From an uncultured Alphaproteobacteria bacterium (GTDB lineage: Bacteria > Pseudomonadota > Alphaproteobacteria > CAAHEQ01 > UBA3637), in contig CANQUX010000001.1 of the NCBI GenBank assembly GCA_947627155.1, positions 64,046 through 128,045 of the forward strand: a DNA stretch of 64,000 nt. Direction: 5' to 3'. The translations under genes and the position numbers were made by a program. The number at the start of each line of letters is the position of its first letter. Within the stretch, counting starts at the first letter, position 1. This document shows positions 1-61,251 of the stretch, piece by piece. The notes below the pieces were generated by a model. It was not told where the DNA came from, did no database searches, and saw nothing but the letters and a program-made list of their open reading frames with translations.

Positions 1-671
1 CGCAATCGGCAGAACAAAAGCAATTGTTTGCTTATTCGATATACAGTTTACCCATCGCCGAACAAAATGCGTTAAAATGGTTAATGATTTTCCCGTTAGC
101 CATTTTAATTGTTGTTTTGTTGCGAAACGTTGTCGGATTGAAAACAATGGGTACTTTTACGCCCATGCTTATTTCAATGGCACTGATTGAAACGGGTTTT
201 TGGCCGGGTTTAACGGCTTTTGTGATTGTAACGGGTATCGGATTGATTATTCGTGCCGTGTTGTCGCGATTAAATTTGTTATTGGTGCCGAGAATTTCTG
301 CCGTTGTGATTTTTGTGATTTTCATTATTCAAATGTGCACGATTATCGGATATCGATTTGATTTTAAAGTGGCTTCCGCCGTTTTGTTTTTCCCGATTAT
401 CATTCTGGCGTGGATTATTGAACGCGCCTCGATTATTTGGGAGGAGGAGGGGTTAAAAAGTGCTTTAAATGAAGTTTTTTCCAGTGTTTTGGTTGCCGTT
501 ATCACTTATTTCGTGATTGTTAATCCCACCGTGCAACACATTATGTTTGCCTTTAATGAATTGAATTTGGTCATTTTATTTATTGTTATGTTGTTGGGAA
601 CTTATACCGGTTATCGATTAACGGAATTAAAGCGGTTTGCCCCGCTTGTCAGACATAAGGATAAAAAATGA
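1..671 (+). CDS. Polytopic membrane protein, 5'-truncated by the window edge. Likely the 7TM/transglutaminase-like partner of the downstream ATP-grasp gene.
   Basis: The ORF is open to position 3 with no in-frame stop upstream of the TTG at 24. It has at least 6 predicted TM helices. Its stop overlaps the next start (ATGA at 668), indicating translational coupling to a RimK-like ATP-grasp gene. Confidence 0.55.
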   Translation, partial: QSAEQKQLFAYSIYSLPIAEQNALKWLMIFPLAILIVVLLRNVVGLKTMGTFTPMLISMALIETGFWPGLTAFVIVTGIGLIIRAVLSRLNLLLVPRISAVVIFVIFIIQMCTIIGYRFDFKVASAVLFFPIIILAWIIERASIIWEEEGLKSALNEVFSSVLVAVITYFVIVNPTVQHIMFAFNELNLVILFIVMLLGTYTGYRLTELKRFAPLVRHKDKK

Positions 672-1615
672 GTTTTTTAGGATTCGTCAGCCCCGAAAAG
701 TTAAGAGAAGCCGGTGTTTTGAGTATGAATCGCCGCAATTACGAAGTGATTGCCCGACATAATCGCCGGCGCTTATATCCGTTGGTTGATGATAAGGTGA
801 AAACCAAACAATTGGCAAACGATATCGGTTTAACAACGCCGCATTTAATTGCTTCCGTCAGTGCGCAATATGAAGTGAAAAATTTTTTGAATCTTGTCAA
901 AAATTATAAAAGTTTTGTGATTAAACCGGCGCACGGCAGCGGCGGAAAAGGTGTTTTGGTTATTCAATCTTATACGCAAAATCATTTTCGATTGCCTTCC
1001 GGGCGGGTATTGAGATATCGCGAAGTTTATCAGCATATTTCCAATATTTTAAGCGGATTATACAGTTTGGGCGGGCGATATGATACCGCTTTGTTTGAAG
1101 AAATGGTTCATTTCAGTGATGTTTTTAAAAATTACAGTTATCAGGGTATTCCCGATGTGCGCCTTATTATTTATGAAGGGTACCCTGTTTTGGCAATGAT
1201 GCGTTTGGCCACAAAAGAATCGGCCGGTCGGGCTAATTTGCATCAGGGCGCCGTGGGTGTGGGCATTGATATCAAAACGGGCAGGGCAATCTCTGCCGTT
1301 CAACACAACAAACCTGTTCGGTTTCATCCGGATACGAAAGCTGATTTAATGCAACTGTCCGTTCCCTTTTGGAAAGAGCATTTGCTGATTGCCGCACAAG
1401 GATATGAAATGACGGGATTGGGATATTTGGGAGCCGATATTGTGTTGGATAAGAATAAAGGACCGATGGTGTTAGAATTAAATGCCCGTCCGGGACTGGC
1501 CATTCAAATAGCCAATCAGTGCGGATTGAGAAGCGTGTTAAAGCGTGTGGAAAAAGATTTTCCGCGCGGATTATCCTTTAAAGAAAGAGTTGAATATGTT
1601 TTATCAACCTATTGA
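668..1615 (+). CDS. Alpha-L-glutamate ligase-like (RimK-family) ATP-grasp protein.
   Basis: Carries ATP-grasp motifs (KPAHGSGGKGVLV, ELNARPGL). Paired with the upstream 7TM protein, as in the known 7TM-transglutaminase / RimK-like operon arrangement. Confidence 0.7.
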   Translation: MSFLGFVSPEKLREAGVLSMNRRNYEVIARHNRRRLYPLVDDKVKTKQLANDIGLTTPHLIASVSAQYEVKNFLNLVKNYKSFVIKPAHGSGGKGVLVIQSYTQNHFRLPSGRVLRYREVYQHISNILSGLYSLGGRYDTALFEEMVHFSDVFKNYSYQGIPDVRLIIYEGYPVLAMMRLATKESAGRANLHQGAVGVGIDIKTGRAISAVQHNKPVRFHPDTKADLMQLSVPFWKEHLLIAAQGYEMTGLGYLGADIVLDKNKGPMVLELNARPGLAIQIANQCGLRSVLKRVEKDFPRGLSFKERVEYVLSTY

Positions 1616-3787: not shown

Positions 3788-3994
3788 ATGAAAACAATCA
3801 GTGTTCTTTGTTCGGTGTGTTTAATGTTTTTTTGTGTCGGGTGCGGGCGTGTTTCGCCGCCGCAATCGCCGGAGGGTGCTTTTTATCCGCATGTTTATTA
3901 TGTGAAAGAAAAAACACCGATGCCGCAAGAGAAGCCCTCAAAAGAAGAAGCCGCGGAACAGGCCAAAGATTATGCCGACAGTATTTTTGATTAA
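3788..3994 (+). CDS. Small lipoprotein (hypothetical).
   Basis: Signal peptide with a lipobox-like FFCVGC motif. Begins 10 nt after the argS stop. Confidence 0.45.
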   Translation: MKTISVLCSVCLMFFCVGCGRVSPPQSPEGAFYPHVYYVKEKTPMPQEKPSKEEAAEQAKDYADSIFD

Positions 3995-4458
3995 ATTTTA
4001 TTGTTTTCGTTTTTATTTTTGTTGAGACGTTGTTTTATTTTCTGTTTACGCGCGTTTTGGTTGGCTTTTACCAAAACAGATTGCTGAATATCATTATCGG
4101 AAGGCTCAATGTTCGGCTGACACATTCCTTGCCCCGAACAATCCAATCCGGAATTAATGCCGCTTTCGTCTGCCGGTTTTTTCGACGGCATTTGATGATG
4201 TTTTTCAAAGGTTTTATCCAAATTTTTTCGGGCATTTGCCAAATGAGTGAATTTTTCCGCTTGAAAAGAAGAGGTTTTCTCTTCGGAGTCGCCCGAAAGA
4301 AGAACGGTTTTTTCCGTATGGCTGATTTTTAAAATTTCTTGATGCGTAATCACCAGTTGTTCGGTGCGCGAAATTTTCAAAAGTGGTTGAAAAGTAAGGT
4401 TTTTATTTTCCGTCTCCGATGAAGTTTCATCGGCCGGAGCAGAGGGTTGATGAGTCAT
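3991..4458 (-). CDS. Hypothetical low-complexity protein.
   Basis: ORF of 155 aa with a GGAG RBS 7 nt upstream. Polar, low-complexity composition. Confidence 0.35.
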   Translation of the reverse strand: MTHQPSAPADETSSETENKNLTFQPLLKISRTEQLVITHQEILKISHTEKTVLLSGDSEEKTSSFQAEKFTHLANARKNLDKTFEKHHQMPSKKPADESGINSGLDCSGQGMCQPNIEPSDNDIQQSVLVKANQNARKQKIKQRLNKNKNENNKI

Positions 4459-4561
4459 TTTTTTCTCCTTTTTCAGGTTATATAAGTTTTTCGATTAAGG
4501 GTTTCAAGCCGGTTGTTTTGTAAAAAAGAAGAAAAAAAATGCATTTTAGTGAAAAAAAAGA

Positions 4562-4590
4562 TTTACTGTTTCAATAAAAATTGTTATAAT
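4562..4590 (+). promoter_or_regulatory. Strong sigma70 promoter with extended -10, for the 4622-7910 operon.
   Basis: TTTACT-N17-(TGT)TATAAT, followed by RBS AGGAGG and the ATG at 4622. Confidence 0.55.
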
Positions 4591-4621
4591 ATAATATATA
4601 GCATAACAGGAGGATTTTTAA

Positions 4622-6226
4622 ATGATCTTTTGGGGAACGGTTCTTGCATTTATTCTCGGTATTATGTATTATATGCTTTATCCGTATGATACAAAAATTT
4701 CAACGGTTTATATGCCTTCGTCAGAGGCCTATGTTGCCGGTTTTGTGGCGCAACATCAGGCCGCCAAAGATTATGCCCGCGAAGCGGTGATTGCCATCAA
4801 TCGCATAACCGAGACTTTGCCGCATCATGATTCGACAACAACGGAAAACAGTCATTCCGTTTTGATTTTATCAGATGCCGAACAGGAAAAAAGTCCGATT
4901 GATTCGTTTTTGCCGAAAGGCATTTCTTCCGTTCAAACAAACAATTTTCAGCCGAATGTTAACAGTAGCGCGCAAAGCGACGATATTATTGATTTCAGTT
5001 CAGGTTTTGTCAGCCTTTTGGCGTGTTTTGATCAACCCGAGCGAAAATTAAACGATTCGAATAAATATACAGAGGCAAAATTAACCGATTGCAGAGCGGC
5101 TACAACAAAATATGTTATGACATACGGCCCCGTTCCCGATGAATTGGACAGACCTTATATGCGCGGGAAAATACTGTTGTGGGAGCCGTCATTGTTAAAA
5201 CGAACAAAAGGGAATCCCGATTGCGGATTCTTGTATTACGATTCGGCAAGAAGTCGCTATTTTATCAATAATTCTCGTCATTTAACGCGAACAATTCCTA
5301 CGGCGTTTATAAATTTGTTCATCGGTTATTTAAACGGTAATGATGAGGGGCGTGTTCTTGTCGGAACAGGTGAAAATTCACGGGAATTATTATTTTGTAT
5401 GACGCCGGTGAATGATCCGTATCCGCGGTTAGGGTTAAGAGTGTTGCTTGACGGCACAATCAATCAATTACTGAGTAATAATGCAATTGAGCATTCGTCG
5501 ACCATACCGAACGGCGGCTGGATCAATTTAGCCAAAGAAAACAGCAGTACGCCTCTTTCAATTACCGGTTCAGGAGCAAACAGTAAGTGGAATACTTATT
5601 GTTCGGCAACAAGCGAAACATGCCATGCCGACGGATTTTCATTCAGCAGAAACCACACAATCACCATTCCTTCGGGGTGGTTTGATTCGGAGCATCCGGA
5701 GGTTGTTCTCGGTGTTCCTTCCACCATTTCCTTTATGGCCTTATTCAAGAAAGGAACTTATCCCGTTTTTGAATCAACAAGCACAGCCGGTAATTATGGT
5801 ATAAAGGCAGAATATAAAGAGAATAAATTAACCGTTACGCTTTCTAAAAATTCAACGAAACATGAGGTATCAGCCACAATTCAACCCGAGGAAATGACTC
5901 AAGTTGATTATATTTTAAATGCGGGCGGTCATAAATTATATGTTAACGGAGAGTTGATCAAGCAAGAGAGTTTCGGCTCTTCTGATTTAATCAGTAGTGT
6001 GGGCGGAACTTCTTTCACGTTGGGCGGTAGTTTGGCAGATTACATTTTATATAACTTTTTAATTTATAATCGCTCACCCGAAGCCGGTGAAGCTTTGTCG
6101 CAATCTATTGATTTATACGGTTTGCCGCGTATTTATAAGTCGAATATGTTACGTTATATAAAGAAAACGGGAAAGATTCAATTGCCGGAGAAAAACAATT
6201 ATTTGCAAAGGAGGACAAATGAATAA
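4622..6226 (+). CDS. Membrane-anchored protein with a C-terminal concanavalin A-like/LamG lectin domain.
   Basis: N-terminal hydrophobic anchor. The C-terminal LYVNGELI...FTLGGSLADYILYNFLIYNRSPEAGEAL matches the LamG/ConA-like consensus (DEVRIYNRALSAEE-type). An in-frame TAA lies immediately upstream of the ATG. Confidence 0.55.
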   Translation: MIFWGTVLAFILGIMYYMLYPYDTKISTVYMPSSEAYVAGFVAQHQAAKDYAREAVIAINRITETLPHHDSTTTENSHSVLILSDAEQEKSPIDSFLPKGISSVQTNNFQPNVNSSAQSDDIIDFSSGFVSLLACFDQPERKLNDSNKYTEAKLTDCRAATTKYVMTYGPVPDELDRPYMRGKILLWEPSLLKRTKGNPDCGFLYYDSARSRYFINNSRHLTRTIPTAFINLFIGYLNGNDEGRVLVGTGENSRELLFCMTPVNDPYPRLGLRVLLDGTINQLLSNNAIEHSSTIPNGGWINLAKENSSTPLSITGSGANSKWNTYCSATSETCHADGFSFSRNHTITIPSGWFDSEHPEVVLGVPSTISFMALFKKGTYPVFESTSTAGNYGIKAEYKENKLTVTLSKNSTKHEVSATIQPEEMTQVDYILNAGGHKLYVNGELIKQESFGSSDLISSVGGTSFTLGGSLADYILYNFLIYNRSPEAGEALSQSIDLYGLPRIYKSNMLRYIKKTGKIQLPEKNNYLQRRTNE

Positions 6227-7910
6227 GTTTAATGAAAAACAAAACGAAAAAGGATCCGTTCTGGTTGAGGTGATTGCCGTTATTGCCTTATTGGGCGTGA
6301 TGGGGCCGTTATTGTTTCGTCAGGTGATGACACGAAACGAAGAAGTGGAAAATATTAACATTGCCTCCGAAATGAGAACTTTAAAAGAAGCTTTTTCGGC
6401 ATATATTTTAACGGATAAGGCGCGTTTGTTGAGAAATTGGTCCGGCGATTCACAGGACTGTAAAAGTGTTGTTGTTAGTGATATTGAATCCTTTTTGCCT
6501 TATGGAAATGAAGCTTACGGAGATTATAAGTTTTACCTTTGTAAAAATACCGATGATTTTTTGCAGGGCTACATTATCCCGGAAGCTTCCGCTATGCCGG
6601 AAACCGTGGGCTTAAAGCGTGCGGCGCGTATTGCCAATTTAATCGGGGCAGATGGTGCTATTTGTCAAAACGGTGATATTAACGGTGTTGCCGGCGGTTG
6701 GGGATTACAAGATCCCGGTGGTTGGTGTAATGCCGGTAGTGACATTACGGTTTATTTGGTAACAACCGGTATGGATACCTATGTGCCGGAAGTCACGTAT
6801 GAAGATTATTCCACGGGTGTGGTGAGTATTCCGAATGAACTTGCTTTGCAGAATTTACACGCATGGAATTATTTTTCAGTCGGGAACGGTCAAAATTGCT
6901 ATGAATTAAAGCACGATAAAACGGGAAATTATGATCCCGAAAAAGGCTTTGTTGCCAATAATGATATAATTTATGATGCAAATGAGCACAGTTGCGATCC
7001 TTTGTTTTGGGTTGGCACCAAGTCCAGTGGAACGGACGATAAAGCCAAGGGTGATGTTTATGTTAAAAACAATTTAATGGTCGGACGAGTCAACAGATCA
7101 AAGCAAGCCATCGGTTTATTCCATGCCGACACAGCTTCCGGAACGGCTGATACAACATATAGTGCCGAACGTTCCGAGGGTAATAAAATTGTTGTGTATG
7201 ATAATATGGGAAAAGAAAAAATTACCATCAACGGTAAAGGTGAAATTATTGCAAAAGGAGAAACAACAGGTACTTCCGGAACCGAAGAAACGATGAAAAT
7301 GACAAATCAAGGTTTGGAATCCAGCATAAAGGCTAAAAATGGGAATGAAAATTATAAAGTTGATCCGGCTTATACGTCGGTGATGAATGATATTAAACTT
7401 GATTCGCGGGGCGGGGCGCGGTTAAGTGATATTTTGCCGAATTATATCAGCCGCGGTGTCTATGAATTAGATAATTCTCACCAATCGGTTCATGTTCCGA
7501 CGTGTCCGAACGGCTATGCACCGGCTGTTATTGTAACGCCCACAATGTGGAAAGAGAAACCGAAAGTTGTAAAGACGGATATTGAAGGTAATTTAAAAAC
7601 GAAGGAATTTGAGATTCCGGCGCAAGGAAGCAGCAGCAGTAGTAAAGTCGGACCGATTGATATTACGGCGCAAAAAGATTTGGAAGTTCAGAATGCTGAT
7701 TTAAAAATAACTATTTCCAATACCGAAAAAGCGTCCGCAACAAGTGGTACTTCAAGTTGGACAATTAAGTTTTTAAGCGAAACCTCTTCTTCTGCTCGTA
7801 CAGACGTGAAAGGCTTGGCTCAAACGTTTTGTGTTTATGATACCGCATATAGCACCAGCGGGAAATGGTCAAACGGTAAAGAGCCGAAAAACCTGGATCG
7901 CTCAAATTAA
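6219..7910 (+). CDS. Large protein with a type IV pilin/pseudopilin-like N-terminus.
   Basis: Charged leader MNKFNEKQNEKG followed by SVLVEVIAVIALLGVMG (Glu at +5 after Gly, then about 20 hydrophobic residues). Overlaps the upstream ORF by 8 nt. Confidence 0.55.
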   Translation: MNKFNEKQNEKGSVLVEVIAVIALLGVMGPLLFRQVMTRNEEVENINIASEMRTLKEAFSAYILTDKARLLRNWSGDSQDCKSVVVSDIESFLPYGNEAYGDYKFYLCKNTDDFLQGYIIPEASAMPETVGLKRAARIANLIGADGAICQNGDINGVAGGWGLQDPGGWCNAGSDITVYLVTTGMDTYVPEVTYEDYSTGVVSIPNELALQNLHAWNYFSVGNGQNCYELKHDKTGNYDPEKGFVANNDIIYDANEHSCDPLFWVGTKSSGTDDKAKGDVYVKNNLMVGRVNRSKQAIGLFHADTASGTADTTYSAERSEGNKIVVYDNMGKEKITINGKGEIIAKGETTGTSGTEETMKMTNQGLESSIKAKNGNENYKVDPAYTSVMNDIKLDSRGGARLSDILPNYISRGVYELDNSHQSVHVPTCPNGYAPAVIVTPTMWKEKPKVVKTDIEGNLKTKEFEIPAQGSSSSSKVGPIDITAQKDLEVQNADLKITISNTEKASATSGTSSWTIKFLSETSSSARTDVKGLAQTFCVYDTAYSTSGKWSNGKEPKNLDRSN

Positions 7911-13929: not shown

Positions 13930-14826
13930 TTATATATCACGTTCATTTTTTTGTTTCATTTTTTGATACACTATTTTTTTAACGGAATTATTCGACTCTC
14001 TCTTTTTTAATAAACGTATGATTTCCTTGTTTTTAACCCGTATGGCTAATTGGAGGGGCGAATGAGAAAATTTATTGGAAATATTTATTTTCGCACCGTT
14101 TTTCAGTAATGTTTCCACGGATTCTTTCTGATTGGAAGCAATGGCATACATTAAAGCCGTATTTCCCTGCATATCTTTAATATTGACATCGGCATTGTTT
14201 TCGATAAGCCATTCCAATGTGCGTTGATTAAAACGATTAACGCTTAACATTAAAGGTGTTTGTTCGTTATTGTTGGGAATATCAATATCTGCACCCGATT
14301 TTTTTAATTGAGCCATCATCTCTATGGAACCGGAACCGGCCGCGCGAAAAAATGCTGTTTCGCCTTTTTTGTTTCTGGCATTGATATCTGCGCCCGCTTT
14401 TACAAATAATTCAATCATTTGCATAGCTTTATGCGTACAGGCTTCCATTAAAGGTGTTCTGCCCGTTTCATCACAGATGTTTAAATTAAGATGATGATCT
14501 ATCATTGATTCCATAATTGTCGTATAGTCTCGCTCCGATTGATATTTATGAATATTTTTAATAAATGTTATAATCGGCAGTTGATTATTTTTATCTTTTT
14601 CATTCAAGTTAATTCCTGTTTCAATCAGTTTAAGAGCATATAATTTTTGTGTGGGATTTTGTAATGCGTAATTTAAAGCCAGTTTTAAGCTTTCTTTATC
14701 TTTAAGAACTTCGGGATTATCAATGATATCTTCAAATTTATTGATATCGTTATCGTAAATAATTCTTATTAAATCAACAGGTTCTTTCATTTTTACAGCC
14801 TTATCGTAAATAAAATAATAATGCAA
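13930..14826 (-). CDS. Ankyrin repeat protein.
   Basis: Multiple 33-aa ANK repeats (G-TPLM-A..., ...GADIN/VN). Confidence 0.8.
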   Translation of the reverse strand: MHYYFIYDKAVKMKEPVDLIRIIYDNDINKFEDIIDNPEVLKDKESLKLALNYALQNPTQKLYALKLIETGINLNEKDKNNQLPIITFIKNIHKYQSERDYTTIMESMIDHHLNLNICDETGRTPLMEACTHKAMQMIELFVKAGADINARNKKGETAFFRAAGSGSIEMMAQLKKSGADIDIPNNNEQTPLMLSVNRFNQRTLEWLIENNADVNIKDMQGNTALMYAIASNQKESVETLLKNGAKINISNKFSHSPLQLAIRVKNKEIIRLLKKRESNNSVKKIVYQKMKQKNERDI

Positions 14827-35789: not shown

Positions 35790-35826
35790 CGGTATGTATA
35801 GAATGCCAAAAAGTAAGGTGAACGAA

Positions 35827-36936
35827 ATGTTTTTTAATGCTTTGAATGAAAAAAAAGATCGCGAGGGAAATACGCAACTGATTGTTGCCTGCCAAAAAGG
35901 TCAGTTAAAAAAAGTTCAACGGTTGATTCGTCTGGGAGCTTATGTAAATGCGCAAAATAAGAGCGGGGTAACGGCGTTAATGAAAGCTCTTCAAAATAAG
36001 GATTCTAAAATTGTGTCTGCTTTATTAAAGACGCCGGATATTGATGTAAATATTAAAGATTTATCCGGAAAGCCGGCGTTAATGTATGCCCTGTCCGATT
36101 GTTATTTGATGAATCTTGATATGTTCTCTCAACTCTTAAAGACACCGAGACTTGATGTTAATATTAAAGATAACTTTGGCAACACGACATTGATTCATAC
36201 GGTCGTCACGCACAATGCGGACGCCTTGTCAGAATTGTTAAAAGCACCGGGAATTAACGTAAATGCTCAAAATCATACCGGAATGACGGCGCTAATGTTT
36301 GCAGTGATAGAAGATAAAAAAACTATGTCGACTTTATTAAATGAATCGAAAATTGATGTGAATATCAAAAATTATCATGGGGAAACAGCGCTTATAATCG
36401 GCGCGAAGTATGGAGTTACAGGGATGGTATCGGAACTGTTAAAAGCGCCGAATATTGATGTGAATGCACAAGATAATAACGGAGATACGGCATTGATTAT
36501 TGCCGCTCGAAGGGGGTATACGAGAATTGTATCTGAATTGTTACAAATGCCGGATATTGCCGTTTCGGCTAAAAATAAAAACGAGGAAACAGCGTTTATG
36601 TGTGCCAAAAGAGAGAAACACACCGAATGTATTCAACTGATAAAATCATGGCCGTTATTCTCAACACTCATTTCAAAACAGGGAAATAATCTGACGAAAG
36701 AGGAACAAGAAGCAATAGCGAAATTCACTTACGATGAAAAATTCCTCCATTCCGAAAACGGGGCTTTGCAGAGAAGAAAAATTTATCAAAAACTGGAATA
36801 TGCAAAATCTCTGGTGCTTTATAAAAGCCTTCAAACAAAATTACGTCCGGAAGAAAAAGAACCCGATCGAAAAATTTTGCATCAAAAACGTTATCAGGAA
36901 CACATGATATCTCAACAATCTGTTCATCAAAGATAA
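35827..36936 (+). CDS. Ankyrin repeat protein.
   Basis: At least 8 ANK repeats. Start adjusted from the ORF-track 35794 because the promoter -10 abuts it. Confidence 0.8.
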   Translation: MFFNALNEKKDREGNTQLIVACQKGQLKKVQRLIRLGAYVNAQNKSGVTALMKALQNKDSKIVSALLKTPDIDVNIKDLSGKPALMYALSDCYLMNLDMFSQLLKTPRLDVNIKDNFGNTTLIHTVVTHNADALSELLKAPGINVNAQNHTGMTALMFAVIEDKKTMSTLLNESKIDVNIKNYHGETALIIGAKYGVTGMVSELLKAPNIDVNAQDNNGDTALIIAARRGYTRIVSELLQMPDIAVSAKNKNEETAFMCAKREKHTECIQLIKSWPLFSTLISKQGNNLTKEEQEAIAKFTYDEKFLHSENGALQRRKIYQKLEYAKSLVLYKSLQTKLRPEEKEPDRKILHQKRYQEHMISQQSVHQR

Positions 36937-42692: not shown

Positions 42693-43526
42693 TTATATTT
42701 CGCTTTGATAAAAACAATTAATCGGACGCATACCGTTTAAAAATTTATATATTTCAACCCGATTAAGCGTTGCTTGCTCTCCGACATTCGTGTAACACAC
42801 ATTGGAAACAATTTGTCCGTTATTAAGTTCGATAACGGCCAGAGGCGCCGAATCAAAGTAAAACAATCGCGCGGTTTGATTCATCACCCCGTTTGAAAAA
42901 AAGATTTCCGATTGAACGGTTACGCCGTCTTCATAAAACTGCATTTGAAGTCCTTGAATTTTGCCGTTTTGATAGTTTTGCGTCAATTGTAAATTTCCGT
43001 TGTCGTAATACATTTCACCCCTACCGACAGGAACGTTGTTTTCATAGGTTTGACGCATTTGCATATTGCTGTTCTTGTAATAGGTTATCAATGACCCGTT
43101 AATCATGTCATTTGTATAAGGAACGCTTGCCATTAAAACACCGTTCGCATAATAGAGCTTTAAAGAACCGTTTTTTTGACCGTTTTCATAAGGAATTGAG
43201 GCCATTAAGTTACCGTTTTCATAAAAAATGTTTTGTGTGCCGCTTATCGGTGTTCCGTTTGATTGAAAAGAAACCATAACGTCGCCGTTCGGGTATAAAA
43301 CATTATTTTGTGTTGTTTTGAATAAATCAAAAGAAGGAATATTGCCCAAAAGATTTGACATTTTTAAGTCATTATCCAATAATGCCAAAATTGGTTGGTG
43401 ATTTAAATCATAGAGAATGTTATCACCATATAAAGCCGAGTAGGGCGGACAACTGCCGAACGGTTCGGCAAATGCCGGATAAGTTAAAATACAAATTCCT
43501 AAAATAAAAAGCGATTTCATTTTCAT
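42693..43526 (-). CDS. MORN-repeat protein, secreted.
   Basis: Signal peptide. At least 6 repeats of YxNGxLxxxxxYxNGxxxG (MORN variant 2). Confidence 0.7.
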   Translation of the reverse strand: MKMKSLFILGICILTYPAFAEPFGSCPPYSALYGDNILYDLNHQPILALLDNDLKMSNLLGNIPSFDLFKTTQNNVLYPNGDVMVSFQSNGTPISGTQNIFYENGNLMASIPYENGQKNGSLKLYYANGVLMASVPYTNDMINGSLITYYKNSNMQMRQTYENNVPVGRGEMYYDNGNLQLTQNYQNGKIQGLQMQFYEDGVTVQSEIFFSNGVMNQTARLFYFDSAPLAVIELNNGQIVSNVCYTNVGEQATLNRVEIYKFLNGMRPINCFYQSEI

Positions 43527-53594: not shown

Positions 53595-55007
53595 TCACTC
53601 ACATAAGGCGTAGTTGCCGTTGCGGTTGCGACCGTATTTGTCGACGATACCGCCCATGAGGTTAACGCGGTACGCGTTGCAGGAAGAATCGTACATATCG
53701 TACATCCATACCCAACAATTACCAAAATCATCGTACAAATCCTTTCTTATCTGACATATGCCTCCGGACGACACCTCGCCACACCCGATGCTTGCCCGCG
53801 TTGCTTGTTTCATTCCTAATGCCTCACAGAACCGCCCGGCGCTCCACCATGTCATATAACCATTATTCACACTCGGCTCGCCAAAAATAAATCCGCTTTT
53901 TGCACCTGCTTTTCCATCCTTTATATCTTTGCTCGCATTCCGGCATTCACTCTTACGAGTGTTATATCCTCCAAATTTATTAGGGTCAAATTCTTGGTCG
54001 TCACCACAATCCTTCCCATAATACATGTAGCAATACTCTCCCAGGCCGCAATCAGAATTTTTCTCGCATTCACCGACGCGCTCCTTATCACATCCGCCGT
54101 TTTCAAGTGATGCTTTCCATTCTTTGCTTGTGTCACTGCTACAAACGCATTTCCCATTCTCCGGTTTACTGCCTTCCGGACAGGTTGTGCATTTAGTGCC
54201 GTCCCAATATGGTGTAGCAGTACTGCATACACATTTTTCGCCATCTTCACTAAGCTCTGCCCCGGCCGGACAAGCGCACTTTTTGCCGGTCCATACTTTT
54301 CCGCCCGAACAACCCGCGCAACAGCCGCCGTTACATGTTTTCTCGTCTTCCGCACAGGTGCATTCGTTCCCATCGTCACTCCGCGTTGTGCCTTTCGGAC
54401 ATTCTTCCGGCACGGGGTCATCATCTTGCGGCTCATCGCCTTGTTCTTCCGGCGGCTCCGGATTATCGCTTCCGCCGCTCACACCGCCTATATCTTTGGT
54501 TGAAAAGGCGACCATTACTTCATTTTCTGTCTCAGAACAGAGATTTTCTGTTGTAGTATAGTCACCACCGTTAATCTCTAATGCGGCTGTATCATCCATG
54601 CTGTCTAATAACGTGGCTAACGGTTTGCAAACCCCGGCCGGTATACCCGATAATGTAAATGAATAGCCCTCTTCTCCCCCTTCTTCATCCGATATTATAA
54701 CCGGATAAGCTATCTCAACGGCATAACTTTCATTAAATTTTAAGTGCCCCTCCTCACCGTCATACGGCTCGCCCAACAATAATTCCACGCCACGCGCAAC
54801 TTTCATTTTCGCATCGGTGCGCATGAGATTGATTTCATTCGCAATTTGATTCGCCTGATATCGATTCATTGCCATTCTGTATCCGGCAATCCCGCCAATC
54901 GATATAACACCGATTATGGCCAAAACGCCCAGCATTTCAACCATACTACGCCCTTCTTGCGCTTGATTTTGAACTTGTTTTAATTGCTTTTTCTGTTGTT
55001 TTTTCAT
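53595..55007 (-). CDS. Pilin-like N-terminus fused to eukaryote-like cysteine-rich repeats. Possible C-type-lectin-like C-terminus.
   Basis: Charged leader then G-RSMVE-MLGVLAIIGVISIGGIAGY. A run of C-x-C-P-x-G...KC-x-C repeats (furin/EGF-like). The protein ends ...NCWVWMYD...YALCE. The gene is GC-rich relative to its surroundings. RBS GGAGG. Confidence 0.6.
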   Translation of the reverse strand: MKKQQKKQLKQVQNQAQEGRSMVEMLGVLAIIGVISIGGIAGYRMAMNRYQANQIANEINLMRTDAKMKVARGVELLLGEPYDGEEGHLKFNESYAVEIAYPVIISDEEGGEEGYSFTLSGIPAGVCKPLATLLDSMDDTAALEINGGDYTTTENLCSETENEVMVAFSTKDIGGVSGGSDNPEPPEEQGDEPQDDDPVPEECPKGTTRSDDGNECTCAEDEKTCNGGCCAGCSGGKVWTGKKCACPAGAELSEDGEKCVCSTATPYWDGTKCTTCPEGSKPENGKCVCSSDTSKEWKASLENGGCDKERVGECEKNSDCGLGEYCYMYYGKDCGDDQEFDPNKFGGYNTRKSECRNASKDIKDGKAGAKSGFIFGEPSVNNGYMTWWSAGRFCEALGMKQATRASIGCGEVSSGGICQIRKDLYDDFGNCWVWMYDMYDSSCNAYRVNLMGGIVDKYGRNRNGNYALCE

Positions 55008-55567: not shown

Positions 55568-56344
55568 ATGGAGAAAATGAAAATGTCGAATGAAATAGTA
55601 ACTGCCGTTCAACGAAATAATTTAGAAGCCGTTCAAAAGTTAATTAAACAAGGCGCTTCCGTTAATTTGGTGAATAAAGATGTTTCCTTGTTGCTTTTTG
55701 CTGTCGGAACAAAGAAAAATCCGCAAATTATACAAGAACTAATAAACGGCGGTGCCAATGTTAATCGCGCCAATGACAAGGGCTTGTCACCGTTAATTAT
55801 TGCTTCGGCAAGTCAGCAACCGAAAGTTGTTGAAATGTTATTAAATGCCGGTGCAAATGTTAATCAACCGGATATTCAGGGAACTACGCCCGTTATGTAT
55901 TCCGCCATGTGGGGTGATATTGTAACGACTCGTTTGTTAATCGGGGCCGGAGCTGATGTTAATCAAACGAATCATGAGGGACTGACGGCGCTTATGCGAA
56001 CCGTAGCGGAGGGACAAAAAGAAGTTGCCGAAACGCTTATTAAATCCGGCGCCGATGTGAATAAAGTTACCAATAACGGTTATTCCGCATTGATGTTTGC
56101 GGCATCGGAAGGACATACCGATACCGTTAAAGTGCTTCTGTCAGCCGGAGCTGATGTAAAACAGAAAAATAAAGAAGGTAAAACGGCTCTGGATATGGTT
56201 AATGATGCCATTAAAGAAAATCCTCAAGCCAAAGAAAAATTTATTGAAATTCAAAAGCTTTTAAACGGCGGATTGTGTAAAACATTATCCAATGCCCAAG
56301 AACCGACACAAACATCGGTGAGGAATAATTCAAACGAACGGTAA
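55568..56344 (+). CDS. Ankyrin repeat protein.
   Basis: Seven ANK repeats (GADVN/GANVN periodicity). Confidence 0.85.
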   Translation: MEKMKMSNEIVTAVQRNNLEAVQKLIKQGASVNLVNKDVSLLLFAVGTKKNPQIIQELINGGANVNRANDKGLSPLIIASASQQPKVVEMLLNAGANVNQPDIQGTTPVMYSAMWGDIVTTRLLIGAGADVNQTNHEGLTALMRTVAEGQKEVAETLIKSGADVNKVTNNGYSALMFAASEGHTDTVKVLLSAGADVKQKNKEGKTALDMVNDAIKENPQAKEKFIEIQKLLNGGLCKTLSNAQEPTQTSVRNNSNER

Positions 56345-60780: not shown

Positions 60781-60810
60781 TAAAGTCATTTGCCTGAAAA
60801 AGGGGAAAAA

Positions 60811-61251
60811 ATGAAAAAAACATTCCTTTGTTATCTGATTGTTTGCGGTATTATCGGCCCGGCAAATGCTAAATATTTAGGACAGTTATCGGCAAATCCT
60901 TATGCCGTCAATTCCACCTCAAATCCTGTCGGTCGCTATGGCAGTCCGTATTCGGCTGACAGTATCAACAATCCTTTCGGAGAATTCGGCAGTGAATATT
61001 CATCTTCATCGGCACATAATTCCTATTCTTACGGAAATGCCTCACTCAAACTTTATGATGCCGAAGGGAATTTCCGAGGTAATTTAAATGATAATCCGTA
61101 TGATCCGGATTCCATTGCTAATCCTTACGGTCGCTACGGCAGCCCTTATTCGGCTGACAGCATCAATAATCCCTACGGTGCCGGAAGTCCTTATCGCTAT
61201 GACAGTCCGAATAATCCGTACGGAGACGGCTGGGAAATTCGTTACGAATAA
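60811..61251 (+). CDS. Secreted repeat protein (NPYG / SPYSADSINNPYG repeats).
   Basis: Signal peptide. Four or more degenerate repeats. An imperfect 60-bp DNA repeat lies at 60921-60980 and 61121-61180. Confidence 0.5.
   Translation: MKKTFLCYLIVCGIIGPANAKYLGQLSANPYAVNSTSNPVGRYGSPYSADSINNPFGEFGSEYSSSSAHNSYSYGNASLKLYDAEGNFRGNLNDNPYDPDSIANPYGRYGSPYSADSINNPYGAGSPYRYDSPNNPYGDGWEIRYE

Follow-up and report, generated by a model that had tools for sequence, protein, structure and literature searches.

We propose, with a probability of roughly 55%, that the two-gene operon described here encodes a two-protein accessory module, most likely the tip complex, of a type IVb pilus. The genes, called gene 1 and gene 2 below along with their products, lie in a 64-kb stretch of DNA that was analysed at its full length (the window). 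They form a conserved, previously unannotated cassette of uncultured gut Alphaproteobacteria. By its sequence, gene 2 is a large prepilin-type protein, and gene 1 carries a lectin-like domain behind a hydrophobic N-terminus without a leader peptide. The features on which this reading is built are collected in table 1.

Table 1. Features of the gene 1–gene 2 operon and of a second prepilin-like gene, with window coordinates.
Feature	Position	Strand	Basis
Sigma-70-type promoter: A-tract, −35, extended −10	4547..4590	+	Promoter scan and footprinting in 7 species
Ribosome-binding site of gene 1, AGGAGG	4608..4613	+	Read directly in sequence
Gene 1, 534 aa: hydrophobic helix, Cys-containing β core, C-terminal ConA/LamG jelly roll; no leader	4622..6226	+	ORF
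Gene 1 aa 1–57: hydrophobic N-terminus running into long helix, MIFWGTVLAFILGIMYYMLYP...QHQAAKDY	4622..4792	+	58 homologue N-termini, AlphaFold
Gene 1 aa 339–483: predicted ConA-like/LamG β-sandwich	5636..6070	+	Pfam PF13385 (below cut-off), Foldseek
Ribosome-binding site of gene 2, AGGAGG, within the 3′ end of gene 1	6209..6214	+	Read directly in sequence
Gene 2, 563 aa: prepilin-type, large modular minor pilin (predicted)	6219..7910	+	ORF, homologues
Gene 2 aa 1–65: class III signal and α1 helix	6219..6413	+	Conservation, weak pilin matches, AlphaFold
Gene 2 aa 66–185: predicted β-sheet head packed on α1, pilin-like lollipop	6414..6773	+	AlphaFold, fold search
Gene 2 aa 334–443: conserved module, ...NDIKLDSRGGARLSDILPNY...PTCPNGYAP	7218..7547	+	tblastn, hhalign, block conservation
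Gene 2 aa 444–563: most variable, indel-rich C-terminal β domain	7548..7907	+	Block conservation
Second large prepilin-like protein, 470 aa: EG then RSMVEMLGVLAIIGV (RSMVEML...), Cys-rich C-terminus	53595..55007	−	ORF

Reading of the ORFs confirmed both genes of the operon set out in the preliminary description, together with their 8-nt overlap. The extended −10 promoter that it placed before gene 1 also held up. This promoter comprises TTTACT (−35, 4562–4567), a 17-nt spacer and TGT-TATAAT (extended −10, 4582–4590); in a promoter scan of the region it was the best of 17 sites (10/12 matches) and the only one with a TG extension. The number of promoter-like sites in the region (17) was not above that in shuffles (14.5 ± 2.9), and we take the promoter as real because of its footprint across diverged species rather than because of the site count: an alignment of seven species whose proteins are just 45–65% identical shows no change in the A-tract, ATTTAC or TTGnTATAAT, while the flanking intergenic bases vary. 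Both in the window and in most relatives the pair is isolated among housekeeping genes, with gene 2 placed neither inside a pilus operon, nor beside a major pilin, nor as a last gene.

Relatives of gene 2 occur in about 280 species-level genomes, and none of its homologues, of which there are at least 287, bears a functional annotation. Across 81 loci from uncultured gut and rumen Alphaproteobacteria, gene 1 lies immediately upstream of gene 2 in 59, with a spacing of −41 to +68 nt (57 loci, this window included); an adjacent gene 1 is missing in L016, L025, L028, L030, L031, L036 and L040.

The N-terminus of gene 2 reads MNKFNEKQNEKG/SVLVEVIAVIALLGVMG, the slash marking the predicted cut after Gly12. 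The 12-aa leader thus ends in Gly12 and is followed by Ser at +1, Glu at +5 (Glu17) and the hydrophobic stretch SVLVEVIAVIALLGVMGPLLF. G12, E17 and G26 (Gly14 of the mature protein) are invariant in 64 of 64 homologues that are 35–70% identical, in agreement with the earlier suggestion of a large class III protein with an atypical +1 residue. Residue +1 is mostly Ser (44 of 79 loci) or Ala (31), with Gly in three loci and Thr in one, and leaders across gene 2 loci are mostly 8–16 aa long. Neither Pfam N_methyl (PF07963) nor TIGR02532 matched gene 2; both models centre on a GFxxxE motif, while gene 2 has Ser or Ala at +1. Below threshold, gene 2 resembled the GspG N-terminus (E 2e-3) and, in register, Geobacter PilA-N (E 0.025). 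AlphaFold predicted an α1 helix of 57 residues (9–65, pLDDT about 90) and strands between residues 81 and 183 (pLDDT 80–95), giving the lollipop layout of a pilin in a model with an overall pTM of 0.38. The top four PDB fold matches were all to TcpB, albeit weak ones (E 1.4e-3, probability about 0.5, TM ≤0.2). Four Cys are invariant in gene 2, as are four in gene 1 (C135, C157, C201 and C259), which we interpret as pointing to disulphide bonds and hence to an extracytoplasmic location. Judged from its sequence, gene 2 is a prepilin-type protein. A motif search for an A24-like prepilin peptidase found none in the window or in approximately 1.5 Mb of relatives' loci.

Further along gene 2, conservation outside α1 peaks in the 20-residue block 381–400 (0.77 identity). 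A tblastn search with gene 2 matched the surrounding module on Pseudomonas megaplasmids, and hhalign with the gene 2 family alignment matched it to the 336-aa pilin of pJBCL41 over 104 columns (95.8%, E 7.7e-9). The pJBCL41 protein passes N_methyl and TIGR02532 and is encoded by the final gene of its pilus cluster, and at the level of profile alignment the gene 2 module is homologous to this true minor pilin. In distant relatives the whole gene 2 protein reaches 1000–1450 aa.

The gene 1 family comprises 174 cluster representatives, nearly all of whose matches start at residue 1, and its block of highest conservation is aa 1–57, modelled by AlphaFold as helices 2–19 and 23–57 (pLDDT 73 and pTM 0.72 for the full model). 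Among the N-termini of 58 homologues, which open with M-(I/V/Y)-(F/I)-W, a hydrophilic leader and Gly-1 are both lacking, and the fifth residue varies between Gly, Ala, Ser, Val, Thr and Leu but is in no case Glu. Phe10, Gly13 and Pro21 are invariant in the LamG-bearing subfamily, and only Phe10 stays near-invariant once the short forms are added. Because the class III signal is absent, we keep gene 1 out of the pilin class: its sequence is not that of a prepilin, and the protein is pilin-like in layout only. No pilin similarity was detected against Pfam, PDB sequences, gene 2 or the Pseudomonas small pilin, and an NCBIfam search yielded no match. The conserved part of gene 1 is a core of approximately 200 aa without known relatives. 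Fold-search matches were dominated by the LamG domain, so the pilin-like head is only a predicted layout.

That gene 1 is a membrane-anchored LamG/ConA protein, as previously described, was supported by several comparisons. Pfam Laminin_G_3 (PF13385) matched aa 383–470 (E 1e-4, 22.8 bits, under the 27.6-bit cut-off), AlphaFold modelled the β-sandwich (339–483) at a pLDDT of about 90, and Foldseek with the gene 1 model yielded 822 PDB matches at E ≤1e-3 (best 5.5e-10), the best of them to botulinum-toxin Hc and trans-sialidase lectin domains. PF13385 also appears in the precomputed annotation of three gene 1 homologues (P0124, P0137 and P0138) and on the L001 gene that precedes gene 2. Of the two domains named in the preliminary description as worth a search, PF13385 was therefore recovered, below cut-off, on gene 1, and PF07963 was not found on gene 2. 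LamG is restricted to longer family members; it is absent from the short homologues (208–330 aa) and appears dispensable in many species. On the strength of these models, the gene 1 C-terminus is a genuine ConA/LamG jelly roll, and it may bind glycans. The proposed analogy with MshQ, or a LamG-fused pseudopilin, does not hold in its original form, as LamG sits on the leaderless partner and not on the prepilin.

The pair had also been thought to be orphaned from any assembly genes. This is correct for the window, where five machinery proteins from relatives matched no ORF at E ≤1e-4, but not for relatives, which carry machinery adjoining the pair or on the same contig. The clade has an R64-type type IVb cluster consisting of TcpQ, a PilN-family secretin, PilO, PilP, an ATPase and a platform protein (TcpQ, PAP_PilO, T2SSE and T2SSF were found in relatives' clusters). 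This cluster adjoins the pair in L050 and L067, shares a contig with gene 2 in GCA_045613285.1 and occurs with the pair within one assembly in GCA_017559525.1; in three relatives, TrbC/VirB2 or VirB4 genes lie beside it. The relatives' secretin passes TIGR02520, the PilN type IVB family (300.6 > 287.65 bits), and scores 106.7 bits with the MshL model, far under the 250.2-bit cut-off. We thus rejected an MSHA or T2SS identity, and with it the earlier MSHA-type comparison, in favour of a type IVb system of the R64 PilN family with TcpQ and PAP_PilO. This particular genome probably possesses such a machine as well.

Two suggestions about giant pilins were borne out. Prepilin-like ORFs in relatives range from 133 to 1015 aa, consistent with a lineage that has a set of unusually large pilins, and the window does contain a second large pilin-like protein. 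The latter, encoded outside the gene 1–gene 2 operon, matched two pilin-like ORFs in L050, one of 133 aa (phmmer E 6e-15) and one of 472 aa after the platform gene (phmmer E 2.6e-7), and is probably a further subunit of the same pilus system.

Taken as a tip complex, the pair would work as follows. Gene 2 would be made as a prepilin and cut after Gly12 by a peptidase encoded elsewhere. The α1 helix of the mature protein (Ser1...Glu5...Gly14) would then seed or enter the pilus core, leaving the conserved mid-module and the variable C-terminal β domain exposed. TcpB, CofB and PilV are large type IVb minor pilins that use α1 in this way. Gene 1, its translation coupled to that of gene 2, would have the same lollipop layout, with a hydrophobic helix and a disulphide-bonded β head. 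Without a leader or Glu5 it would form the outermost subunit; the absence of Glu5 is expected there, since such a subunit has no partner above it. By pairing with gene 2, gene 1 would contribute glycan binding, whose targets in the gut could be mucus or the surfaces of host or partner cells. Assembly would fall to the R64-type machine of relatives (PilL-like, TcpQ/PilM, PilN secretin, PilO, PilP, ATPase and platform). Processing of gene 2, its incorporation at the tip and its complex with gene 1 are what we infer from these features taken together. A bolder and rather doubtful extension is that gene 1 typifies a 'born-mature' subunit class, a pilin-shaped type IVb cap with swappable adhesin modules and no prepilin-peptidase step, and that the clade displays many giant modular pilins (133–1450 aa) by a single R64-type machine, possibly making contact with eukaryotic cells in combination with a neighbouring type IV secretion system and ankyrin-repeat proteins.

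The placement of gene 1 is the point most open to another explanation. Gene 2 could be a minor pilin while gene 1 never enters the filament, acting instead as an inner-membrane-anchored periplasmic accessory or chaperone that stabilizes or primes gene 2, with LamG binding a periplasmic glycan such as peptidoglycan. The lack of a leader, of Glu5 and of pilin sequence similarity in gene 1 would fit this role, as would a conserved core of approximately 200 aa on which LamG is dispensable in many species; there is also a precedent in Streptococcus sanguinis, where PilA strongly stabilizes PilC (PMC9934059). However, the gene 1 helix is conserved like a pilin α1 (Phe10, Gly13 and Pro21 in the LamG-bearing subfamily), beyond what a plain anchor needs, its variable, domain-swapping C-terminus fits surface-exposed adhesins, and it is the tip-most subunit that is able to dispense with Glu5 (PMC5207764). 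We consider the chaperone role unlikely, if still worth keeping in mind.

The machinery could be read differently too, as the part of a chromosomal conjugation apparatus or type IV secretion system that makes the thin pilus, like that of IncI plasmid R64, with the pair as a mating-pilus adhesin that recognizes recipients and gene 2 picking partner cells in the manner of PilV. The R64 gene order of the cluster with its PilN-family secretin (order from PMC6232867), the neighbouring TrbC/VirB2 or VirB4 genes in three relatives and the fact that, beyond the clade, the gene 2 module has its sole homologue on MPF_I-typed Pseudomonas megaplasmids are all consistent with this. Yet pair and cluster are embedded among housekeeping genes and widely conserved in the clade with no evident mobile element, the locus has neither shufflon nor recombinase, and equivalents of PilS, PilT and PilU are missing from the cluster, making a mating function improbable. 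By far the least credible reading, which we regard as highly improbable, is that both are surface proteins of an ordinary kind, anchored in the membrane or exported by Sec, with no link to a pilus and a coincidental G....E pattern. The missing N_methyl and TIGR02532 matches for gene 2 and a window free of assembly genes and peptidase would suit it, but chance is hard to reconcile with a Gly-1 and Glu+5 that are invariant in 64 sequences just 35–70% identical, with homology of gene 2 to a true prepilin encoded at the end of a pilus cluster, or with the type IVb machine linked to the pair in relatives. By inspection, moreover, neither N-terminus is Sec-like: gene 1 lacks a charged n-region and there is no AxA-type site in either protein.

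Pfam has no model for either protein family, bar the accessory LamG on gene 1, and database names, where there are any, are 'hypothetical'. Human, ruminant and rabbit samples are the source of the uncultured gut and rumen Alphaproteobacteria that bear gene 2. With the pair tied to an R64-type type IVb pilus, there is a first functional handle on how these common bacteria may adhere to mucus, to the host or to partner cells, with gene 1 as a candidate lectin adhesin. If gene 1 is truly part of the filament, it would bear on what a tip subunit needs and on whether leader cleavage is obligatory.

TcpB of the Vibrio cholerae TCP and CofB of ETEC CFA/III are among the known systems closest to gene 2, with a short-leader class III signal and Glu5, a multi-domain build far larger than the major pilin, and a pilin domain followed by β domains. 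TcpB, a minor pilin of 423 aa whose leader is 7 aa long, starts assembly without needing its own Glu5 and occurs in roughly one copy on each pilus (PMC5207764). Gene 2 shares no sequence similarity with TcpB, which is not among the PDB-sequence matches of the gene 2 family profile. Unlike TcpB and CofB, gene 2 lies outside the machinery operon and away from the major pilin, has a dedicated upstream partner gene and carries Ser or Ala at +1.

PilV is the tip adhesin of the R64/IncI thin pilus. The gene order L-M-N-O-P-Q-R and a PilN-family secretin are common to R64 and the clade's machinery (PMC6232867), whereas a plasmid search detected no similarity of gene 2 to PilV and there is no shufflon at the pair. 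On pJBCL41 the terminal 336-aa pilin is likewise preceded by an overlapping gene for a small pilin, but the small pilin has the canonical GFTLIE prepilin motif and shows no similarity to gene 1. The jelly-roll fold of the gene 1 C-terminus is common to botulinum neurotoxin Hc-N and the trans-sialidase lectin domain; in contrast to other ConA-like/LamG domains, that of gene 1 sits on an orphan membrane-anchored core.

The pilus of S. sanguinis, a monoderm, is type IVa-like and unrelated in sequence to gene 1 and gene 2. Its lectin is on PilC, a canonical Glu5 pilin, whereas here the lectin is on the leaderless, Glu5-less gene 1, and its Glu5-less subunit, PilA, keeps a cleaved 8-aa leader where gene 1 has none. 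Nevertheless, the organization is reminiscent of the complex predicted for gene 1 and gene 2: PilA and PilC are two interacting minor subunits, one with a degenerate signal and no Glu5, for which a tip complex has been proposed, and the ConA-like lectin module of PilC binds host glycans (PMC9934059).

The downstream gene of the pair (gene 2) encodes a prepilin-type protein that begins MNKFNEKQNEKG and continues, after the cleavage point, as SVLVEVIAVIALLGVMGPLLF. Its family comprises at least 287 proteins; none carries a Pfam domain, and those few that have a name are labelled 'hypothetical'. In an alignment of 64 sequences (35–70% identity), Gly12 (position −1), Glu17 (+5) and Gly26 (Gly14 of the mature protein) are invariant; most leaders at 79 loci have 8–16 residues, and position +1 is occupied by Ser (44), Ala (31), Gly (3) or Thr (1) but at no locus by Phe or Met. 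This bears out the class III prepilin N-terminus with Ser at +1 proposed in the preliminary description. The expected N_methyl similarity did not materialize: the N_methyl and TIGR02532 models are silent on gene 2, and the sole match among curated models, to the GspG N-terminus, is sub-threshold (E 2e-3). The family profile, searched against PDB sequences, aligned Geobacter PilA-N in register (E 0.025). The AlphaFold model (pLDDT 72, pTM 0.38) consists of a 57-residue helix (residues 9–65), a β head (81–183, pLDDT 80–95) and then less confident β domains. Its best four fold matches in the PDB were all TcpB, the type IVb minor pilin of Vibrio cholerae; because these are weak (E 1.4e-3, TM ≤ 0.2), we take them as a lead only. 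A phage origin was considered and rejected, with no BFVD match to gene 2 at E ≤ 1e-3.

Searching plasmids with gene 2 by tblastn matched only prepilin genes on Pseudomonas megaplasmids, and only through residues 360–443 (12 records, 11 from Pseudomonas and one from Aliivibrio). On pJBCL41, an MPF_I plasmid, the target is a 336-residue protein that passes N_methyl and TIGR02532 and is the final gene of a pilus cluster ordered secretin, GspE-type ATPase, prepilin, platform protein, 174-residue pilin and 336-residue pilin; the cluster prepilin has a leader of approximately 40 residues, with N_methyl starting at residue 39. Profile comparison of gene 2 residues 334–442 with residues 177–280 of the 336-residue pilin gave 95.8% probability (E 7.7e-9, 104 columns), and both share the motif NDI(K/R)L-(S/T)R-x2-A-x-LSD(I/L)LPNY...KPTC. 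The 20-residue block 381–400 of gene 2 is as conserved as the N-terminal pilin helix, despite which pLDDT is below 50 for residues 384–406; residues 381–407 may serve in an interaction or fold upon binding. Variability is highest in the C-terminal 120 residues. Homologues in distant relatives reach 1000–1450 residues, and a Pfam search for extra domains in these long forms gave no match.

The upstream gene (gene 1) does carry the LamG/ConA domain first described for it. The Pfam Laminin_G_3 match is sub-threshold, and the modelled β-sandwich (residues 339–483, pLDDT about 90) has 822 fold matches among PDB chains at E ≤ 1e-3, headed by the lectin domains of botulinum toxin (Hc) and trans-sialidase. 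With 174 representatives among 1.84 billion, the family is small; nearly all matches begin at residue 1, and the N-termini have a common pattern, M-(I/V/Y)-(F/I)-W-x-x-(V/L)-(L/A)-x-F...P-R-x-D...QH-x-AA. Members range from 208 to 595 residues and the short ones lack LamG, which is an add-on module of the family. Outside LamG, gene 1 is an orphan: 32 family members and five short forms had no match in Pfam, the profile found only spurious phosphatase matches among PDB sequences, and tblastn found no match on plasmids. Its modelled layout is pilin-like, with a predicted helix of approximately 56 residues, kinked at Pro21 (invariant within the LamG-bearing subfamily), leading into a β domain (129–277) with four invariant cysteines, which we read as probable disulphides. 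With neither a hydrophilic leader nor Glu5 at its N-terminus, the protein that bears LamG is no prepilin. The reading of gene 1 as a diverged pilin was also rejected: hhalign of its N-terminus gave only 3% against that of gene 2 and less than 2% against the 174- and 336-residue Pseudomonas pilins.

The two-gene overlapping operon is as first described: both ORFs are present on the same strand, overlap by 8 nt and are each preceded by AGGAGG. The extended −10 site upstream of gene 1 scored highest among the promoter sites scanned and was the only one with a TG extension. Such sites are no more numerous in the region than in shuffles, so the pattern by itself is little proof. Unlike the bare pattern, comparison with relatives does support a genuine promoter, as the preliminary description had predicted from the sequence: in an alignment of upstream regions from seven species with proteins 45–65% identical, no change is seen in the A-tract, ATTTAC and TTGnTATAAT, in contrast to the bases beside them, which vary. 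A second intergenic element is conserved as well: (T)ATATAAG, found approximately 80 nt ahead of the −35 box and close to where a divergent ORF starts. It aligns in five relatives (loci L004–L007 and L013) and may be the promoter of that ORF or a regulatory site. No terminator was found 3' of gene 2 (fold z-score +1.3). The DUF1189-like gene downstream is not kept beside the pair in relatives, and the GC content of the pair region equals that of its surroundings.

Features of the gene pair and of the surrounding window
Feature	Position	Strand	Detail
7TM_transglut membrane protein	24..671	+	Strong Pfam match; overlaps next ORF
ATPgrasp_ST ligase	668..1615	+	Strong Pfam match
Divergent ORF	3991..4458	-	155 aa
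(T)ATATAAG element	4480..4490		Conserved, intergenic
−35 box	4562-4567		TTTACT; 17-nt spacer follows
Extended −10 box	4582-4590		TGT-TATAAT
AGGAGG	4608-4613		Before gene 1 ATG
Gene 1	4622..6226	+	ORF, 534 aa
AGGAGG	6209-6214		Before gene 2 ATG
Gene 2	6219..7910	+	ORF, 563 aa
Gene 2 motif	7359..7439		VDPAYTSVMNDIKLDSRGGARLSDILPNY, aa 381-407; common to Pseudomonas plasmid minor pilins
Ankyrin-like repeat ORF	13930..14826	-	By eye
Ankyrin-like repeat ORF	35794..36936	+	By eye
MORN-repeat protein	42693..43526	-	
Second prepilin-like protein	53595..55007	-	470 aa, ...EG/RSMVEMLGVLAIIGV (slash, cleavage point), Cys-rich C-terminus
Ankyrin-like repeat ORF	55568..56344	+	By eye
Repeat-motif protein	60790..61251	+	153 aa; signal-like N-terminus

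A scan of species-representative genomes yielded 280 relatives of gene 2, the closest only 65% identical, so the species of the window has no representative genome in that set. The 78 loci retained are from gut or rumen MAGs of uncultured bacteria, sampled from rabbits, ruminants and humans. Almost all bear the label Alphaproteobacteria or Proteobacteria, two the label Lactobacillales. Two MAGs titled 'uncultured Lactobacillales bacterium' (L022 and L067), each with the pair or the type IVb cluster, have genes that match the alphaproteobacterial family and are probably mislabelled or mis-binned. Of 81 loci, 59 have a gene 1 homologue directly upstream of gene 2 and in the same orientation, with a spacing of −41 to +68 nt (57 loci measured, window included), while the flanking genes vary from locus to locus; gene 2 occurs without an adjacent gene 1 in seven loci.

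The pair had been called an orphan from any assembly genes, which holds locally (phmmer with five machinery proteins found no match in the window) but fails in relatives. In two of these, L050 and L067, the pair abuts a cluster of TcpQ, secretin, PAP_PilO, a protein of approximately 300 residues, T2SSE ATPase and T2SSF platform, followed in L050 by a 472-residue prepilin-like gene. The same seven-gene cluster shares a contig with gene 2 in GCA_045613285.1 (approximately 17 kb away by contig coordinates), occurs in GCA_017559525.1, where the pair is on contig 7, and is found on two more metagenomic contigs of the clade. The secretin passes TIGR02520, 'PilN family type IVB pilus formation outer membrane protein' (300.6 against a cut-off of 287.65 bits), and the protein after PilO has a weak PilP match. 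Because of this secretin and the presence of TcpQ and PAP_PilO, we reject a T2SS or MSHA affiliation: the system is type IVb. Its gene order is that of PilL-M-N-O-P-Q-R in the R64-type pil operon, in which PilR is followed by PilS (prepilin), PilT, PilU (peptidase) and PilV (tip adhesin) (PMC6232867). No prepilin peptidase, the chief missing piece, was found by motif and TM-count filters over all ORFs of the fetched DNA, nor in four machinery neighbourhoods (10 kb either side). The ATPase family is large and highly conserved (more than 3197 proteins at E ≤ 1e-50, the top 120 at least 64% identical). A literature search on pili in this clade returned nothing relevant. In three loci, the cluster adjoins TrbC/VirB2 or VirB4/TrbE genes (L082, 3440..3799; L085, 3409..3795; L086, 283..2715, the last with a phage-like region downstream), an arrangement that, by analogy, recalls the pairing of the R64 thin pilus with a conjugation system.

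The suggestion of an unusual set of giant pilins holds for the lineage. The 470-residue protein of the window is a member of a class whose N-terminus reads G/R(S/T)M(V/I)EMLGVLAI(I/M)GVLS (first slash, cleavage point; Arg at +1, Glu at +5). Proteins of this class, of 133–1015 residues, are scattered through relatives; in L050, the 133-residue ORF lies at 1085..1486, and another member, with EGF-like matches, directly follows the pilus platform gene. Elsewhere in the window, ankyrin-like and MORN-repeat proteins suggest, in a gut alphaproteobacterium, interaction with eukaryotic cells; another relative (L001) has an ankyrin protein close to the pair. The 153-residue protein has repeated NPYG and SPYSADSINNP motifs and no Pfam family match.

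Taken as a whole the finding is real and its first reading essentially right; the aspects that merit pursuit are the leaderless partner protein and the repertoire of giant pilins. The best reading of gene 2 is as a minor pilin of the TcpB/CofB/PilV type, large and modular, in a type IVb pilus. TcpB (423 residues, 7-residue leader) initiates assembly at about one copy per pilus, without need for Glu5 since nothing lies above the first subunit (PMC5207764). Gene 1 would be a capping or partner subunit of gene 2, supplying adhesion, a role it fits by its tight coupling to gene 2, its pilin shape, the lack of Glu5, the conserved cysteines and the exchangeable C-terminal modules. The chief rival to this reading holds gene 1 to be an accessory factor that stays membrane-anchored. 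A further rival, on function, is a mating pilus, which the R64 ancestry of the cluster and its TrbC/VirB2 and VirB4 neighbours would suit.

In the pair the lectin sits on the leaderless protein, an arrangement for which, if gene 1 is a pilus subunit, we know of no precedent. In Streptococcus sanguinis, PilA, which lacks Glu5, stabilizes PilC, a pilin that binds host glycans through a ConA-like lectin module; the authors of that work propose that the two form a tip complex (PMC9934059). PilA–PilC is the nearest precedent of the pair, with the difference that the lectin is carried in S. sanguinis by PilC, the partner of the Glu5-less PilA, and in the window by the Glu5-less, leaderless candidate subunit itself.
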